64,000 bases of DNA from an uncultured Thermodesulfobacteriota bacterium (GCA_964387595.1 CAYLYF010000002.1:7403-71402), one strand, 5' to 3'. Numbered from the stretch's first letter, positions 8,359-17,934 are shown. Numbers and translations are program-made. Notes: generated by a model not told the origin, from the letters alone.

Positions 8359-8632
8359 CCACGGCTTTAGAGCAGTTTCTTTTTCACTATAGCCTTAAGA
8401 CAGCTGAACCAACAGTTTAAACAGCTTGAACGGTTTAATCAAATTAAAAATCTCAAATAAAACTGAAAAGCAGTAATGCCAAACCTTTTACATTATTTAC
8501 CCTTTTTGTTCTTTTTCGTTTTGGCATTCATTGGGCATTTGAACTTTGGTCTTTGGCTTTTAGATTGCACCGTACCTACCGTTATGCCTAAACGTTATGG
8601 CTACAATATTTAAGAAAATGCTCTAGCCGTGG
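8359..8632 (+). mobile_element. MITE-like element family R2, copy 1 (~274 bp) with terminal inverted repeats CCACGGCTTTAGAGCAGTTT ... AAAATGCTCTAGCCGTGG
   Basis: A second, ~80% similar copy lies in inverted orientation at 17065-17326. The ends form ~12-18 bp TIRs. The element is non-coding. Confidence 0.55.
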
Positions 8633-8677
8633 ATAATTACAAAAAATGAAATCTGAAAGGTGTAGAATAGATATGAA

Positions 8678-8708
8678 TCACTCACTTCTAACTTCTCACT
8701 TCTCACTT
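8678..8708. repeat. Tandem heptamer array, (GTGARRA)x4 read on the minus strand (TCACTCACTTCTAACTTCTCACTTCTCACTT on plus)
   Basis: The array is read directly. It sits immediately 3' of the trkA stop codon, and the same motif recurs at 14545, 16168 and 17338. Confidence 0.5.
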
Positions 8709-8713
8709 ATTAA

Positions 8714-10078
8714 TTACCAGTATTCAAGTTTAACGGTTAACGCTTTTTCAACTTTTTTTATCGCACTTGAAAGTGCGAAAATAATGACATGATCACCGGG
8801 CTGTATAACGCTGTCTCCACTGGGTATAATCAGTTTATCTTCTCTTAATATCGAGGCTATAATTGCATCTTTGGGAAATTTCACTTTAGAAAGAGGCTTA
8901 TTTACAATGTCTGAAGTCTCCAGAGCAACGGCCTCAATCGCCTCTGCTTTTTTGTCATGGAATGTTGTGGCTGAAAGTACTTTGCCTTTGCGAATAAAAT
9001 GCAGTATTCGGTTGATCGCACAAAGGTTTGGATTTACAACCAGATCAACACCGAGCTTTGAAACAAACTGTGTATATGAGATATTATAGATGAGAGATAT
9101 GACTTTTTTCGCACCTTTCTGTTTTGCAAGCAAAGATAACAGTATATTGTCTTCCTCATCTTCTGTGACAGCTATAAAAATATCAGTGTTTTCAATCTGC
9201 TCTTCATCAAAAAGTTTTTCCATGTCACCGTCATGATGAAGAACCAGTGTCTTATCAAGCTCCTCAACTATTTTAAGTGATTTTGCTTCATCAGCCTCTA
9301 TCAGTTTTGTTGATATGTTCAGTTTCTCAAATTCTTTTGCCAGAGGAACATCAATATTTCCACCGCCGACAATCATTGCTCTTTTTACCGGGTTGTACTC
9401 TTTTCCAAAAAAAGTAAGCAGGGAATTTATGCTGTCATTGGTTGTGATCGCGTAAATGATGTTGTTAAAATAAATTTTATCGTAACCTCGGGGAATGATT
9501 ACCTCGTTGTCACGGTAAATAGAGGCGACCACTAAATCATTTAAACCGCTTTTTTCTCTTAAGTCTTTTAGTTCAATACCATCATAGAAAATCGGGTTTT
9601 CAACTTTTAATCCGATAATTTTAATTCTGCCGTTATTGAAATCAACGACATCAATTGCACCGGGTACCTGCAGGAGTTTCATGATTGAAGCGACAGCTTC
9701 GTAATCCGGGTTAATTAAATAGTCAACATTCAGGCTGCTGTCATTGAATATCTCCGGATTTTCAATGTACTCAAAATTTCTTACTCTGGCCACTTTTGTA
9801 GATGATTTAGTCTGTGATGATGCAACCGCACAGGAAATCAAGTTGACTTCGTCACTGTCGGTAACAGCAATAAGCATGTCTGATTCTTTTATTCCTGCCT
9901 GCTGAAGTATTTTTAAGGAACTGCCGGTTCCTTCGATTGCCTGAACATCAAGTGCGTCTCTGATCTTGTTTGTTTTATCTATATCTTTATCTATAACGAT
10001 TATGTCTTCTTTTTCTAAAGAAAGACTTTGGGCAAGATGATAACCAATGTCACCGGCTCCGATTACGATTATACTCAT
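8714..10078 (-). CDS. trkA: TrkA K+ transport NAD-binding peripheral subunit (tandem RCK domains)
   Basis: The N-terminus has a GxGxxG Rossmann motif (IVIGAGDIGYHLA). A second RCK repeat is present and the length is 454 aa. Confidence 0.9.
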   Translation of the reverse strand: MSIIVIGAGDIGYHLAQSLSLEKEDIIVIDKDIDKTNKIRDALDVQAIEGTGSSLKILQQAGIKESDMLIAVTDSDEVNLISCAVASSQTKSSTKVARVRNFEYIENPEIFNDSSLNVDYLINPDYEAVASIMKLLQVPGAIDVVDFNNGRIKIIGLKVENPIFYDGIELKDLREKSGLNDLVVASIYRDNEVIIPRGYDKIYFNNIIYAITTNDSINSLLTFFGKEYNPVKRAMIVGGGNIDVPLAKEFEKLNISTKLIEADEAKSLKIVEELDKTLVLHHDGDMEKLFDEEQIENTDIFIAVTEDEEDNILLSLLAKQKGAKKVISLIYNISYTQFVSKLGVDLVVNPNLCAINRILHFIRKGKVLSATTFHDKKAEAIEAVALETSDIVNKPLSKVKFPKDAIIASILREDKLIIPSGDSVIQPGDHVIIFALSSAIKKVEKALTVKLEYW

Positions 10079-10144: not shown

Positions 10145-10327
10145 TTAAAGACTATTTTTATCATATTTTTCATTTAGAATATCAAGCTCTTTTTCTATAT
10201 CAAGATCAGAATTGTTTTCAGCTTTCATCATAATCTGCATAATCTCAAGCTGAGGTATATGAGAGGTTGTTTTTATCAGAGCTTCGATTCTTTTAATTAT
10301 TGGACTGTCGAAGGTTTTTGGTCTCAT
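10145..10327 (-). CDS. Hypothetical small protein (60 aa)
   Basis: The ORF comes from the track only and no recognisable domain was found. Its position just upstream of trkA is compatible with a leader or small protein. Confidence 0.25.
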   Translation of the reverse strand: MRPKTFDSPIIKRIEALIKTTSHIPQLEIMQIMMKAENNSDLDIEKELDILNEKYDKNSL

Positions 10328-10678
10328 TGTTAACCTGTGTAATCTATAGTTTATAGTGGAATTAAAAGTGATAATTACAGGAAAGGTTTTTTGTGATCTT
10401 AGTCAAACAGTGTGAGTACATTATTTGCTTCGTTTGATATGTGTTCATTTATTCTTGCAAGCAGTTTGTGTTTACTGTCTTTTATATATCATTAGGGTTA
10501 AGATATCTACTCTTTATCTTTGATCTCTAACCTGTTTATTCAAATTATTGTTAACTTCAAACTTTATAAACAGAGGATTATTTATGGAGGGTCAATCCTT
10601 AAGTATTCACGTTTAAAGTAAGCAAGGTTGTTTGCTTTATGGAAAATATAGAAAAAATTATAAAAATTATTTTTATGT

Positions 10679-11070
10679 TTCGTCAATAAAATCTGTGGGT
10701 AACTTTTTAGTATTAACTAGAGAATACAAAATTAAAACAGTGGGTTGTCAATATAAACACCCCGTTTTTTTTTAGCGTTAACTTTTATTAAAGAACCTTA
10801 TTCAAAAGATGAACGTCAAATATAAAACCTTGAACGTCCAACATTGAACATCGAACTTCCAACGTCGAATGAAAACCTAGCACCTAAAATCAACCAATTT
10901 TGTTTGTTTTGTTGTTTTTTTCCATTCACCATTCGATGTTGAACGTTCGATGTTCGATGTTCATTTGTTTTTACGTCCACTGTTCATCTATTTTCAACCC
11001 GTCCGTTTGTGCCGTTAAAAGGATCTGTAGTGTAAATTGTTTTTTTACCCGCAGATTCTGTTGAAGAACC
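10679..11070 (+). mobile_element. MITE-like element family R1, copy A (~392 bp) with ~20-24 bp TIRs (TTCGTCAATAAAATCTGTGGGTAA ... TTACCCGCAGATTCTGTTGAAGAA)
   Basis: A near-identical copy lies at 16411-16807 in the same orientation. The element contains a long internal imperfect palindrome rich in GAACRT/CGATGTTC hexamers flanking a T-rich loop. It is non-coding. Confidence 0.6.
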
Positions 11071-11177
11071 ATTTTACAAGTATCTAATGTGCTGTGCTTT
11101 GTAGGATGCAGGCACATTATAACCTGTAGAGCCGGTAATTACCGGTCTATCGTCTGCTGCTGCTGAAAAGTATTTTG

Positions 11178-14544: not shown

Positions 14545-14560
14545 CTCTCACTTTTCACTT
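14545..14560. repeat. Short heptamer array (GTGAAAA GTGAGAG on minus strand) overlapping the oppA-like stop codon
   Basis: Same motif family as at 8678, 16168 and 17338. This array is only ~2 units long. Confidence 0.4.
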
Positions 14561-16156
14561 AATCAATGTGTGCTTCTGCATTGATTTGGGTACATACCAT
14601 TTATGAAGGTTATAGCTTATACCGATCGGTTCCGGTTTGATATTTTTTATTCTCTTATGAACAATGGGGAGTGCATAGGGAACATATAGAAAAATATAGG
14701 GGACTTCCTCGGCAATGATTTCCTGAAATTTAAAGTACGCTTTTTTTCGTTCTTCCAGATCAAAGGTCCGCCGCCCTTTTTCAAGCAGTATGTCAATCTC
14801 TTTGTTTTTATAAGATATGAAATTAAACTCTTTTTCTGCTGTTTTACTGCTGTGCCAGATGTCATACTGGTCAGGATCAAGGCCGATTCCCCAGCCGAGC
14901 AGTACGGCTTCAAAACGCCTGGTATCAATACGTTCGTTTATGAAGGTAGACCATTCGAGTACCAGGATCTTTACCCTGATCCCGATCATCTCAAGCCGCC
15001 ACTGGATGATCGTTGCGGTTCGCAGACGCTGGGCATTTCCCTGGTTTGTAATAATGGTAAATTCAAAAGCTTTACCGTCTTTGTCAAGGATATTGTCACC
15101 GTCTGTGTCTTTCCATCCCGCTTCATTAAGAAGCTGTTTTGCTTTTTTAAAATTGTACGGATATTTTTTAACATCAGGATTATATGCCCAGGTATTGGGA
15201 ACATATGGACCTGTTGCTTCCAGCCCGAGTCCAAAAAGGATGCCGTCTATTATTTCTTTTTTGTCAATTGCATAAGCAATTGCCTGCCTGACCCGTTTAT
15301 CCTGAAAAGGGGGGTGCTTAAAATTAAATCCCAGATAAGTGTATCCCCGTGAAGGATATTTGTATTTTTGAAAATTATTTTTAAAATAATCTGAATGGGT
15401 CTGTCTGCTGTATTGAAGCGGGGTCAAAGACATCATGTCAATTGAGCCTGTCTGAAGCTCTAAAAACTGGGTTGAGATGTCAGGAATAATTTTGTAGACA
15501 TAATTATCCAGATACGGCCGGCCTTCAAAATAATTGGGATTTGATCTAAGGATCAATTTCTCACCGGACAGCCATTTTGTTAATTTAAAAGGGCCCAGTC
15601 CCAGGGGTTTCCGGGTTAACGGGCTTTTGGTAATATCTTTTCCTTCAAGAAGATGTTTGGGGAGCACGACCATATTCCCCCAGGTTGAAAGTGCCGGCGC
15701 AAAAGGTTTCTCATATGTTGCTTTAAAGGTATATTTGTCAATGACTTCCGCCTTTTTCACCTGCATAAAGTCACCGGAATAGGCAGTGGGAGTTTTAGGA
15801 TCGATTATTGTTTTAAAACCAAAATAGACGTCGTCTGCTGTAAACGGGACGCCGTCTTCCCAGACGATATCTTTTCTTAAATGAAAAATAAGGGTCAGGC
15901 CGTCTTTTGAGACTTCCCAGGACTCTGCCAGATCACCGGTCAGCGTCAGGTCTGTATCATATTTTACCAGACCGTTATAAATAAGACCGGAAATATCATG
16001 TGATGCACTGTCAGAGGCCAGCATGGGAATGAGGTTTGACGGTTCCCCGATGGATGCAACAACTAAAGCGTCACCGAATTGGCCAATGCTGTTTTGTGAA
16101 AGGACAGACAAAGGTGTTGTGCTAAGGATTATTATGATCAGTAATATTTTTTTCAT
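14555..16156 (-). CDS. ABC transporter substrate-binding protein, family 5 (OppA/DppA-like)
   Basis: The ORF is 533 aa from MKKILLIII (signal peptide) and has family-5 SBP architecture. The 17 extra codons in the track ORF (to 16207) are encoded by the heptamer repeat array and are probably not translated. Confidence 0.85.
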   Translation of the reverse strand: MKKILLIIIILSTTPLSVLSQNSIGQFGDALVVASIGEPSNLIPMLASDSASHDISGLIYNGLVKYDTDLTLTGDLAESWEVSKDGLTLIFHLRKDIVWEDGVPFTADDVYFGFKTIIDPKTPTAYSGDFMQVKKAEVIDKYTFKATYEKPFAPALSTWGNMVVLPKHLLEGKDITKSPLTRKPLGLGPFKLTKWLSGEKLILRSNPNYFEGRPYLDNYVYKIIPDISTQFLELQTGSIDMMSLTPLQYSRQTHSDYFKNNFQKYKYPSRGYTYLGFNFKHPPFQDKRVRQAIAYAIDKKEIIDGILFGLGLEATGPYVPNTWAYNPDVKKYPYNFKKAKQLLNEAGWKDTDGDNILDKDGKAFEFTIITNQGNAQRLRTATIIQWRLEMIGIRVKILVLEWSTFINERIDTRRFEAVLLGWGIGLDPDQYDIWHSSKTAEKEFNFISYKNKEIDILLEKGRRTFDLEERKKAYFKFQEIIAEEVPYIFLYVPYALPIVHKRIKNIKPEPIGISYNLHKWYVPKSMQKHTLIK

Positions 16157-16167
16157 TAGCAATGGCC

Positions 16168-16202
16168 GTGAAAGGTGAAAGGTGAGAAGTGAAGAGTGAG
16201 AA
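16168..16202. repeat. Tandem heptamer array (GTGAAAG GTGAAAG GTGAGAA GTGAAGA GTGAGAA) on the plus strand, 12 bp upstream of the oppA-like start
   Basis: Five tandem 7-mers are read directly. This is the longest copy of the motif family. Confidence 0.5.
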
Positions 16203-16410
16203 GACAAATATAATTAAATTTCATTTCGTTATTTCTACAGTTTTTTATTCTTTAAATAGTTTCTTAAACCCATAATCAGTGAGCGGACTTCGTTAATATT
16301 TTTGATGATATTTCCTGTCGTACAAAATTTCAAACGTTCAGATATGATTAGTTGAGTTTCCAGTTCAGAAAGTGACCCTAATGATATGTTTAAAAAGTAT
16401 AGAAATTCGC

Positions 16411-16807
16411 TTCGTCAATAAAATCTGAGGATAACTTTTCAGCACTTATTATAGAATACAAAGTTAAAACAGTTGGTTATCAATATAAACACCCTGTTTT
16501 TTTAGCGTTAACTTTTATTAAAGAACCAAATTCAAAAGATGAACGTCCAACATTGAACATCGAACTTCCAACGTCGAATGAAAACCAACCACCTAAAATC
16601 AACAGATTTTTTTTGTTTGTTTTGTTGTTTTTTTTCATTCATCATTCGATGTTGAACGTTCGATGTTCGATGTTCATTTGTTTTGACGTCCAATGCCCGT
16701 CCTGAGCCTAATCGAAGGGTTCATCTATTTTGCAACCAGTCCGCTTGTGTCTTGCAAAAGATCATTAATAAAGATTACTTTTTTACCCACAGATTTTGTT
16801 GAAGACC
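16411..16807 (+). mobile_element. MITE-like element family R1, copy B (~397 bp), flanked by a 9-bp direct repeat TAGAAATTC
   Basis: The copy is ~85-90% identical to copy A and has TIRs GCTTCGTCAATAAAATCTG ... CAGATTTTGTTGAAGACC. A putative target-site duplication TAGAAATTC lies immediately on both sides. Confidence 0.6.
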
Positions 16808-17064
16808 TAGAAATTCTTTATCCGATCTCCTTCCAGCACCTTCGCTAATATTGCTTGTAATAGATATAGCAGACCTTCATATCTGCGAAGTTAACCCATA
16901 TTCTTCTTCTTTTGGGAATGATGCTGTTAATTTATATAGTTTCTACCAGAGATACAGATTGCTTCCAAACATCCATTTCCTTGTGATTCATACATTTATG
17001 TCTAATAGTCTATACTATTAGAATATCAGAATCTTCACTGATTACCCATCCATTGCAATAATGG

Positions 17065-17326
17065 ATTAGAGCATTTTTATAACGTGTAGCCATATGTTTT
17101 AAGTGACGGCTGGTGAAGTTCAATCTAATGTCAAAAGCCAAAGTTCAAATGACAAATGAATGCCAAAAAAGAAAAAGCACAAAAAGGATAAATGAGTTTG
17201 GCATTGGTGTTTTTCAGTTTCATTTGACATTTTTAATTTGAACTTAAAATTTCATGTTTATCCGTTAAAACCGTTCAAACGGCAGTCCAACTATCCGAGG
17301 CTATAGTAAAACAGAAACTGCCCTAG
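17065..17326 (-). mobile_element. MITE-like element family R2, copy 2 (~262 bp), inverted relative to copy 1
   Basis: The reverse complement aligns along its length with 8359-8632, with TIRs CTAGGGCAGTTT ... AAAATGCTCTAATCC. Confidence 0.55.
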
Positions 17327-17337
17327 CTCCTTATCCG

Positions 17338-17362
17338 TCACTCTTCACTTCTCACTTTTCAC
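17338..17362. repeat. Tandem heptamer array (GTGAAAA GTGAGAA GTGAAGA GTGA on minus strand) immediately 3' of the AMMECR1 stop
   Basis: Read directly. Same family as at 8678, 14545 and 16168. Confidence 0.5.
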
Positions 17363-17367
17363 TACTT

Positions 17368-17934
17368 CTAAAATATCTCCGCAGAAAAAATATAAATTTC
17401 CATATCATCATCCTTCCAGGCATCCGATGGAAGACCGGCCTTATTGCAGGTCTGTGATAAAAAGGTTTCTTTGTCCCAGTTGTACTGCAAAGCTACCTGG
17501 GGCAGCAGGAGTCCGGAATAAGGGCCTTTGATCATCATAAGTCCATGTTTACCAACTTCTATCTCGCTTATTTCCTTTATCTGTTTCATAGGCGTTAAGA
17601 CAGACAGTTCAATATCAAGATCAGATAGTTCATCTTTTTCTAAGGAAGGAAATCTCGGGTCCTGAAAGGCTGCTGCAAGGGCCATTTCATTTATTGTTTC
17701 TGCAAGAGGTTTTACCGCATGGACATAGCCTATGCACCCTCTGAGCTTGCCACCTTTATGTAAAGAAACAAAGGCCCCTCTTTTTTCATTAAGCGTATCA
17801 GTTAAAGCTTTGGGTATGGATGGCGACTCATTACGCAGTTTTTTTTCAATAGCTGTTATTGCGATTTTATGGAGCTCATTTTTTTCATCTTCAGTAAGGG
17901 CTTTATCTATTGATGCTGTGGTTTCTTCATTCAT
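17368..17934 (-). CDS. AMMECR1 domain protein
   Basis: Conserved LRGCIGY, DPRFP and GLLLPQV motifs of the AMMECR1 family are present. The ORF is 188 aa. Confidence 0.85.
   Translation of the reverse strand: MNEETTASIDKALTEDEKNELHKIAITAIEKKLRNESPSIPKALTDTLNEKRGAFVSLHKGGKLRGCIGYVHAVKPLAETINEMALAAAFQDPRFPSLEKDELSDLDIELSVLTPMKQIKEISEIEVGKHGLMMIKGPYSGLLLPQVALQYNWDKETFLSQTCNKAGLPSDAWKDDDMEIYIFSAEIF

Follow-up and report, generated by a model that had tools for sequence, protein, structure and literature searches.

Tandem heptamer arrays at gene ends of an uncultured Thermodesulfobacteriota bacterium are probably arms and remnants of S23p cassettes

The intervening sequence (IVS) in the 23S ribosomal RNA (rRNA) of Coxiella has an open reading frame (ORF) for S23p and is enclosed by terminal inverted repeats that form a 28-bp stem cut by RNase III (PMC4990558). 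Its 5′ arm holds two to three tandem GACAGAT heptamers, the number depending on the strain (PMC4990558), and S23p itself is a homopentamer (PMC4990558, citing Lin 2006). Here, we analyze a stretch of 64,000 nucleotides of DNA from an uncultured Thermodesulfobacteriota bacterium (GCA_964387595.1 CAYLYF010000002.1:7403-71402; the whole stretch is hereafter the window), in which tandem arrays of another heptamer, GTGARRA, stand at the ends of genes in four places (table 1). We consider it probable that these arrays are the inverted arms and the decayed, gene-less copies of a selfish S23p cassette of the 23S rRNA IVS type. We demonstrate the anatomy of the cassette, its recurrence across lineages, and its insertion history in the lineage of the window.

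Like the S23p-encoding IVSs in the 23S rRNA of Coxiella burnetii and Leptospira (PMC4990558), the locus in the window has a PF05635/S23p ORF that is prone to decay (a pseudogene in the window, intact in the nearest relative found, L207; L219 is the same contig), terminal inverted repeats around the ORF for a long stem (~25–28 bp in these elements), an upstream arm that, like that of Coxiella, holds tandem heptamers, and a selfish character. It differs in location, lying between two protein-coding genes, AMMECR1 and oppA, and not in helix 9, 25, or 45 of the 23S rRNA; in its unit, GTGARRA instead of GACAGAT; and in having extra gene-less copies at the ends of neighboring genes. A search of the window with Rfam found one tRNA only and no rRNA.

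Tandem heptamers at gene ends are also known from other systems. Xanthomonas has ~186 arrays of GGGAATC, of which 70–75 form convergent inverted pairs; the G-rich strand of the arrays is the coding one, 0–50 nt past stop codons, and the counterpart of GGGAATC in Nostoc is GGGGA(T/C)T (Rehm et al. 2015, PMC4692102). These arrays share with those in the window intergenic tandem 7-nt units, usually about four, frequent convergent inverted pairs, a purine-rich strand that is coding after stops and noncoding just before starts, and a lack of conservation between related species. Arrays of both units have been read as G-quadruplex formers (PMC4692102), whereas GTGARRA cannot form a quadruplex. Direct repeats of TAACTGA occur in Beggiatoaceae, Cyanobacteria, and some Bacteroidetes (MacGregor 2015, PMC4679880), and they too are tandem heptamers, in 2–6 copies, nearly all intergenic at gene ends and patchy across phyla, but most are just upstream of start codons, only one inverted pair is present, and no associated gene is reported. 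Neither paper mentions S23p, and full-text searches of an incomplete collection found no literature linking S23p/PF05635 genes outside rRNA to heptamer arrays. GGGAATC is the exact unit that flanks the S23p gene between accB and accC of Xanthomonas, and this link appears to be a new connection. The arrays in the window are tandem and, except for the one that overlaps the oppA stop codon, intergenic; stop codons precede three of them, and the fourth, ahead of a start codon, has the complementary orientation.

The STRR heptamers of heterocystous cyanobacteria (Calothrix, Nostoc), reportedly described by Mazel et al. in 1990 and cited in PMC4692102, are likewise families of tandem heptanucleotides in noncoding DNA; to our knowledge, no cassette or gene association has been described for them. 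Several S23p cassettes on viral contigs carry AGGCAGA-type arms. REP/REPIN sequences and the RAYT transposase, reportedly treated by Nunvar in 2010 and by Bertels and Rainey in 2011, resemble the present system in their genomic signature, in which a small gene stands between inverted copies of a repeat whose other copies occur as hairpins at the ends of genes. A gene flanked by an inverted dispersed repeat is seen locally in the window and in L207/L219, and in Xanthomonas with GGGAATC, but the flanked gene encodes a four-helix-bundle PF05635 protein without HUH motifs, and not an HUH (Y1) transposase, and the repeat is a tandem array instead of a single palindrome. Avd, the accessory protein of diversity-generating retroelements, is a homologous, PF05635-like protein with the same pentameric four-helix-bundle organization (PMC10053308), but its context is different; the cassette in the window has neither a reverse transcriptase nor a template or variable repeat nearby.

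Anatomy of the cassette between AMMECR1 and oppA

An insertion of 1.2 kb separates AMMECR1 from oppA and has a GTGARRA array at each end, the two in inverted orientation. Positions 16175–16199 and 17338–17362 form a 25-nt inverted repeat in which 24 of 25 positions are complementary (96%), and the cassette they delimit spans the whole spacer, leaving only a few bases after the stop codon of AMMECR1 and a few ahead of the start codon of oppA. The original prediction held that none of the arrays forms a hairpin, which is correct locally, where folds at the four arrays are not better than those of shuffled sequence (z-scores of −1.55, +0.11, +0.96, and +0.05), but overlooks this long-range pairing. 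A terminator scan had no match at any of the four arrays, which agrees with the earlier view that they are not intrinsic terminators; the local G+C-rich stem-loop and U run of a Rho-independent terminator are missing, and the nearest approach is a weak imperfect hairpin with a T run at the trkA array.

Translation of the cassette interior uncovered an S23p pseudogene. Alignments to the intact gene of L207 revealed a 2-nt deletion, an AGA-to-TGA nonsense change, and an insertion of a miniature transposon, R2. The reconstructed protein is 116 amino acids long and has 5508 matches at E ≤ 1e-10, and all of the best 120 of the 5508 carry PF05635, the Pfam family of the 23S rRNA intervening-sequence protein. 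A profile of S23p proteins matches PDB 2GSC (Xanthomonas XCC0516) with E = 4.9e-40.

The duplex between the arms in the window has a predicted energy of −37.8 kcal/mol. When the complete cassette RNA of 1235 nt is folded computationally, the right arm is the pairing partner of 24 of the 25 left-arm nucleotides, and the ensemble expectation is 23.8 pairs between the arms. In a transcript that reads through from AMMECR1 to oppA, the arms are predicted to pair into a helix of ~25 bp. By analogy with the terminal stem of rRNA IVSs, RNase III may cut this helix, and the cut would remove the cassette RNA and separate the AMMECR1 and oppA mRNAs. Since the Coxiella IVS is built in the same way and RNase III cuts its stem, pairing followed by RNase III cutting is a likely mechanism here.

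The remaining two arrays are next to trkA and at the oppA stop codon. All genes of the window from 4.7 to 20 kb are on the minus strand, with the transcription order, in descending coordinates, of ftsY, AMMECR1, oppA, oppB, oppC, plsX, a 60-amino-acid ORF, trkA, trkH, and a transketolase-like gene. Read in mRNA sense, three of the four arrays are GTGARRA, confirming that the purine-rich strand follows stop codons, and the array before oppA is the complement (TTCTCAC TCTTCAC TTCTCAC CTTTCAC CTTTCAC). The four belong to one nonrandom family at gene ends, as had been proposed: with up to one mismatch, GTGARRAGTGARRA has eight matches versus 0.45 ± 0.70 expected from 100 dinucleotide-preserving shuffles, none of which gave eight. 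Its copies are confined to 8.6–17.4 kb, with no match at the same threshold in the remaining 47 kb of the window. Tandem Repeats Finder called a period of 7 for three of the four arrays. Distances to the neighboring codons had been given as 3 nt past the trkA and AMMECR1 stops and 12 nt before the oppA ATG and are replaced by the measured values in table 1; the five units and the opposite orientation of the array before oppA stand. Also borne out is the overlap with the end of oppA, whose stop codon (14555–14557) is the TGA of the first unit of that array. The trkA and oppA-stop arrays are probably gene-less copies of the cassette arm in the course of decay. Any (GTGARRA)n with n ≥ 3 has TGA in all three frames, so no ORF can read into the purine strand, a property that goes some way to account for the placement of the arrays exactly at gene ends. 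TAACTGA repeats likewise have stops in all three forward frames, and MacGregor made the same point for them (PMC4679880).

Table 1. Coordinates of features in the window and composition of S23p cassettes in other lineages
Feature	Position or location	Strand	Description
Whole cassette, probably of rRNA IVS type, ~1.2 kb	16168–17362	−	AMMECR1–oppA spacer of 1211 nt vs ~83 nt in L127–L129
Left (5′) cassette arm	17338–17362	−	GTGAAAA GTGAGAA GTGAAGA GTGA; begins 5 nt past AMMECR1 TAG (17368–17370)
Right (3′) cassette arm	16168–16202	GTGARRA reading on +	Five units; 11 nt between array and oppA ATG (16154–16156)
S23p/four-helix-bundle (PF05635) pseudogene	16235–16991	−	Inside the cassette
trkA array, gene-less	8678–8708	−	GTGAGAA GTGAGAA GTTAGAA GTGAGTGA; begins 7 nt past trkA TAA (8714–8716)
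Degenerate complementary arm, then T run (TTTTTT)	8641–8677	−	Conserved region in L219
oppA-stop array, probably decayed	14545–14560	−	GTGAAAA GTGAGAG; two good units only
R2 in S23p gene, 399 bp	16409–16807		9-bp target duplication GAATTTCTA at 16400–16408 and 16808–16816
R2, other copy	10677–11068		Spacer between plsX and 60-amino-acid ORF
R1 copy 1	8368–8625		In loop of small hairpin CCACGGC/GCCGTGG (8359–8365, 8626–8632)
R1 copy 2	17067–17325		Between left arm and S23p gene; absent from L207
Cassette L208, metagenome-assembled genome	Between two epimerase genes		TAGTGAC... / ...CCATCAC
Cassette L209, Ulvibacter litoralis	clpP and DUF58		GTGAACT x3... / TCACCGC TCACCAC...
Cassette L062, Rudanella	Two genes of RND efflux pump		GTGAGGA x4 / TCTTCTCAC..TCCTCAC
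Cassette L040, Chitinophagales	Downstream unannotated ORF		AAGGCRT, AGGGTGG units
Cassette L123, relative of the window, 3′ side only	Upstream of oppB		GCGCTAT-type downstream arm
Cassettes L210–L216, seven viral contigs			CGTTACA, AGGCAGA, GGAGGCA, AGAAGGC, GGAAGAA, GTTGCCA, GCTGTTG
Cassettes L220, L223, Xanthomonas campestris, X. sacchari	accB and accC		GGGAATC GGGAGTG GAGAATC GGGAATC / ATTCCCC ATTCTCG ACTCCCT ATTCCC, abutting accC ATG
Cassette L226, Nitrospirae genome	hisA and hisF		GTAACAA... / ...TTGTCAC

Comparison with relatives and insertion history

Two loci from different metagenomes, L001 and L002, are 100% identical to the window over 17–20 kb, arrays included, and no strain-level variation in array copy number was found between them and the window. 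The arrays do not behave as phase-variable repeats (contingency loci), showing no copy-number variation and lying outside housekeeping coding regions. The window has a G+C content of 38%, and the best named relatives of its TrkA are Thermodesulfobacteriota at ~64% identity.

Syntenic relatives recovered via TrkA and OppA homologs point to recent insertion. In L125, L126, L217, and L218, in which TrkA is 89–90% identical, the trkA–trkH spacer is 83–84 nt long and array-free, and alignment places a 31-nt insertion of the window right past the stop codon, holding most of the trkA array. The AMMECR1–oppA spacer of L127–L129 (OppA ~86% identical) is ~83 nt and likewise array-free. These orthologous spacers, from relatives with ~86–91% protein identity, do not support conserved arrays for binding of a regulator, and the arrays appear, from the sequences compared, to be recent insertions and not conserved sites.

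The nearest relative, with 89.9% identity to the window in OppA and 91.7% in PlsX, retains both the cassette and the arrays. The order in L207 is AMMECR1, S23p, and oppA, and the S23p gene is intact (P0121, the best match, 83% identical to the reconstructed protein of the window). On its left side, GTGARRA arrays begin 5 nt past the AMMECR1 stop in three blocks of 4, 3, and 4 units, and the right arm (TTCTCAC TCATCAC TTCTCAT TTTTCAC CTTTCAC) ends 9 nt before the oppA ATG and matches that of the window at 32 of 35 positions. Downstream of oppA, GTGAAGA GTGAGAA GTGATGA begins 3 nt past the stop, in the same place as the array in the window, and 7 nt past the trkA stop in L219 is a degenerate homolog of the trkA array, GTGAGAA GTAAAAT GTTAGAA GTGAGAC. 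Conservation in relatives is thus found in L207/L219 and fails in the spacers examined in L125–L129, L217, and L218. The comparison indicates that the S23p gene at AMMECR1–oppA was already in the common ancestor with the nearest sampled relative and that the arrays have drifted in sequence and unit number between the two. Since the cassette and arrays of L207/L219 are without the miniature transposons R1 and R2, all four arrays are older than both the split of the lineages and the miniature transposons.

The R1 family is ~258 bp in length with a terminal inverted repeat of TAGRGCAKTTT and apparently targets TA, and its two copies are in opposite orientation. Copy 1 entered a TA within the loop of a small, unrelated hairpin (CACGGCTAAAAGCCGTG) that L219 has in unsplit form; the target of copy 2 was a TA in unique sequence. 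R2 elements are ~395 bp and have CTTCRWCAAYAAAATCTGWGGRTAA as their terminal inverted repeat. Each R2 copy has an internal hairpin with tandem-heptamer arms of a different unit, GAACATC/GAACGTC versus GATGTTC.

The relatives also differ from the window in other ways. Those that cover the spacer from plsX to the 60-amino-acid ORF (10328–11177), including L207/L219, have genes for a PilZ protein, an MshE-type ATPase, a ParA-like ATPase, and an HDOD protein; these four are absent from the window, which has an R2 copy instead, implying a lineage-specific deletion at 10328–11177. The 60-amino-acid ORF itself (10145–10327) has no Pfam match and is kept upstream of trkA, at 60–65 amino acids, in L123–L126, L217, and L218. 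In L123 (11366–11652) and L124 (11366–11634), two metagenome contigs in which TrkA is 87% identical, the trkA–trkH spacer opens with tandem AAAGTGCCT/AAAGTATTT units (9/18 nt) followed by an inverted copy, and the tandem arrays of the two contigs differ by exactly one 18-nt unit. Tandem-unit hairpins are not limited to a period of 7, as these 9/18-nt arrays indicate. In the same two relatives (L123:1–343 and L124:1–337), an S23p gene and a GCGCTAT-type downstream array are directly upstream of oppB, where oppA is expected.

S23p cassettes and GTGA-type arrays in other lineages

Sixteen S23p cassettes were compared: those of the window, L207, L208, L209, L062, L040, L123 (3′ side only), L210–L216, L220/L223, and L226 (table 1). 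In 16 of 16, the arms are inverted and periodic at 7 nt, while the sequence of the unit varies by lineage. The upstream array begins 0–22 nt past the previous stop, where a gene could be called, and the complementary downstream array ends 0–17 nt before the next start. Inverted-repeat scores of at least 20 were reached by 9 of 12 complete cassettes, a level seen at none of 480 random sites and in 0.4% of 796 ordinary gene flanks. Likewise, 9 of the 12 had an upstream period-7 score of at least 17/21, against 1.9% of ordinary gene flanks, and periods of 5, 6, 8, and 9 gave no more than background values in these 12. Predicted energies of the arm duplexes range from −21 to −71 kcal/mol, and predicted folds of five other cassettes have 25–48 pairs between the first and last 90 nt. 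The cassette is co-oriented with both neighbors in the seven loci having gene calls; the crude ORF calls of viral contigs are ambiguous in this respect.

The S23p gene of Xanthomonas (L220:1924–2372 and L223:1984–2432), a homolog of XCC0516 (PDB 2GSC), splits the accB–accC pair. The pyrimidine-rich arm reaches right up to the accC ATG, and no Shine-Dalgarno sequence is obvious there, leaving it a puzzle how accC, an essential gene, is translated.

A pattern scan of genome contigs for (GTGARRA)3 returned at least 120 loci from many phyla, with at least 159 GTGA-type arrays, defined as three or more GTGA cores at 7-nt spacing. A complementary arm within 150 nt accompanies 36 of the 159 listed, forming gene-less hairpins in Gemmataceae, Pyrinomonadaceae, Saprospiraceae, Chitinophagaceae, Vulcanimicrobiota, and others, and these hairpins often start just past a stop codon. 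In L040, the S23p gene is far from the GTGA array and its arms are of a different unit.

Gene-less GTGAAAA/GTGAAGA hairpins are exemplified by L015:3–190 and L075:5335–5458 (Saprospiraceae), L084:4010–4114, and L095:259–364. Loop sequences are conserved within the L015/L075 and L084/L095 pairs, suggesting small families of elements, and past the hairpins of L084 and L095 comes TACCTTTG, a sequence similar to the −7 promoter motif of Bacteroidota. In L054:3339–4049 (Gemmatimonadota), (TCACTTC)x9 and (GTGAGAA)x6 bracket a whole gene for a membrane protein of ~200 amino acids. The pyrimidine array abuts the start of the gene and the purine array its stop, the same arrangement as TYYTCAC–oppA–GTGARRA in the window and L207.

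Alternative explanations and implications

Several observations weigh against interpreting the arrays as arms and remnants of S23p cassettes. Among the 159 listed GTGA-type arrays, 111 have no detectable partner and only one (L062) is beside an S23p gene, so that most are not cassette arms in the strict sense but gene-less hairpins or solo arrays. In the window, the oppA-stop array has only two units and no length change relative to L127–L129, and the trkA hairpin, which is imperfect and formed with the degenerate arm at 8641–8677, is statistically weak (−19.2 kcal/mol; z = −1.55, not significant). Neither a target-site duplication nor a clean insertion junction is visible at the cassette, in contrast to R1 and R2, which have the inverted repeats, target-site duplications, and clean junctions of miniature transposons. 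The spacer sequence of the empty sites in L127–L129 is unrecognizable on either side of the cassette, and the cassette seems to have taken the place of the ancestral spacer instead of splitting it. Finally, arm mismatches on the sense strand have no G.U bias (19 G.U versus 22 A.C), so pairing could be maintained at the level of DNA, as in the terminal repeats of transposons, and not of RNA.

A different possibility, which we regard as unlikely but the strongest of the rivals, is that a protein, perhaps the pentameric S23p itself, recognizes 7-nt units of RNA or DNA and has its binding sites in the arrays, and that these regulate translation or mRNA fate at gene ends or are spread by that protein in a REP/RAYT-like manner. 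It would account for a 7-nt period that is kept in all 16 cassettes while the unit differs by lineage, and for a gene flanked by a repeat that is dispersed elsewhere in the genome (window, L207, and Xanthomonas). Arrays of mostly 3–6 units could suit a homopentamer (PMC4990558; PDB 2GSC), and MacGregor (2015) proposed binding of a regulator for TAACTGA arrays (PMC4679880). However, the S23p gene of the window is dead, yet the arms are still 96% complementary; S23p is without known nucleic-acid sequence specificity; and the absence of arrays from the orthologous spacers of relatives leaves no conserved regulon.

It is improbable that the arrays are hairpins at transcript 3′ ends, that is, terminators or mRNA stabilizers past trkA and AMMECR1, with S23p incidental and cassettes landing in hairpins. 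Local folds in the window are no better than shuffles, the terminator scan is empty at the arrays, and trkA–trkH and AMMECR1–oppA are adjacent same-strand pairs that in relatives have short spacers without hairpins. This explanation draws on the other phyla, in which many of the hairpins among the 36 of 159 arrays with a nearby complementary arm begin 0–5 nt past a stop codon and some are followed by T runs (L015, L075, L084, and L095), and on the trkA array, which can pair with the degenerate arm that precedes TTTTTT. Terminator hairpins are a plausible explanation for the gene-less hairpins of other phyla and a weakly plausible one for trkA.

Neutral microsatellites that arose by replication slippage, with no common origin or role, are very improbable. 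Unit number and sequence do drift between the window and L207/L219, and the number of heptamers differs among Coxiella strains (PMC4990558), but L001 and L002 are identical to the window with no variation in copy number, the same unit is present at four sites within 9 kb, and period-7 arrays occur at only ~2% of gene flanks. We rejected slippage because two of the copies form a precise inverted pair and the association with a PF05635 gene recurs in distant lineages. Least credible is the earlier suggestion that the arrays are parts or preferred targets of the neighboring miniature transposons, which has proximity in its favor (R1 copies are ~12 nt and ~52 nt from two arrays) and is rejected because L207/L219 has arrays at the same three sites without R1 or R2, the two R1 copies are oppositely oriented relative to the arrays, and R1 inserted at TA in an unrelated hairpin loop and in unique sequence.

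The cassette interpretation, which we favor, bears on two puzzles of ~30 years' standing, the role of the S23p "intervening-sequence protein" and the origin of tandem heptamer arrays at the ends of bacterial genes. The two meet in one anatomy of array, S23p gene, and inverted array between co-oriented genes, found in the window and in 15 further cassettes of distant lineages, with examples at AMMECR1–oppA, accB–accC, hisA–hisF, clpP–DUF58, and between two genes of an RND efflux pump. This suggests a broader class of operon-dwelling element, of which rRNA IVSs are a particular form. For genome annotation, such arrays mark insertions, not conserved regulatory sites. The interest of the locus lies less in the decayed copy of the window than in the general link between S23p and heptamer arrays.

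Only tentatively do we extend this to a broader proposal, that S23p proteins and tandem-heptamer arrays constitute one widespread REPIN/RAYT-like system in which the pentamer would recognize the 7-nt periodic arms in the form of single-stranded DNA or RNA and cause them to be processed or to spread. If so, dispersed arrays such as those of GGGAATC in Xanthomonas and of GTGARRA here and in Bacteroidota would be products of S23p, as, more speculatively, would the cyanobacterial STRR arrays and the TAACTGA arrays, and rRNA IVSs would be copies that landed in rRNA hairpins.

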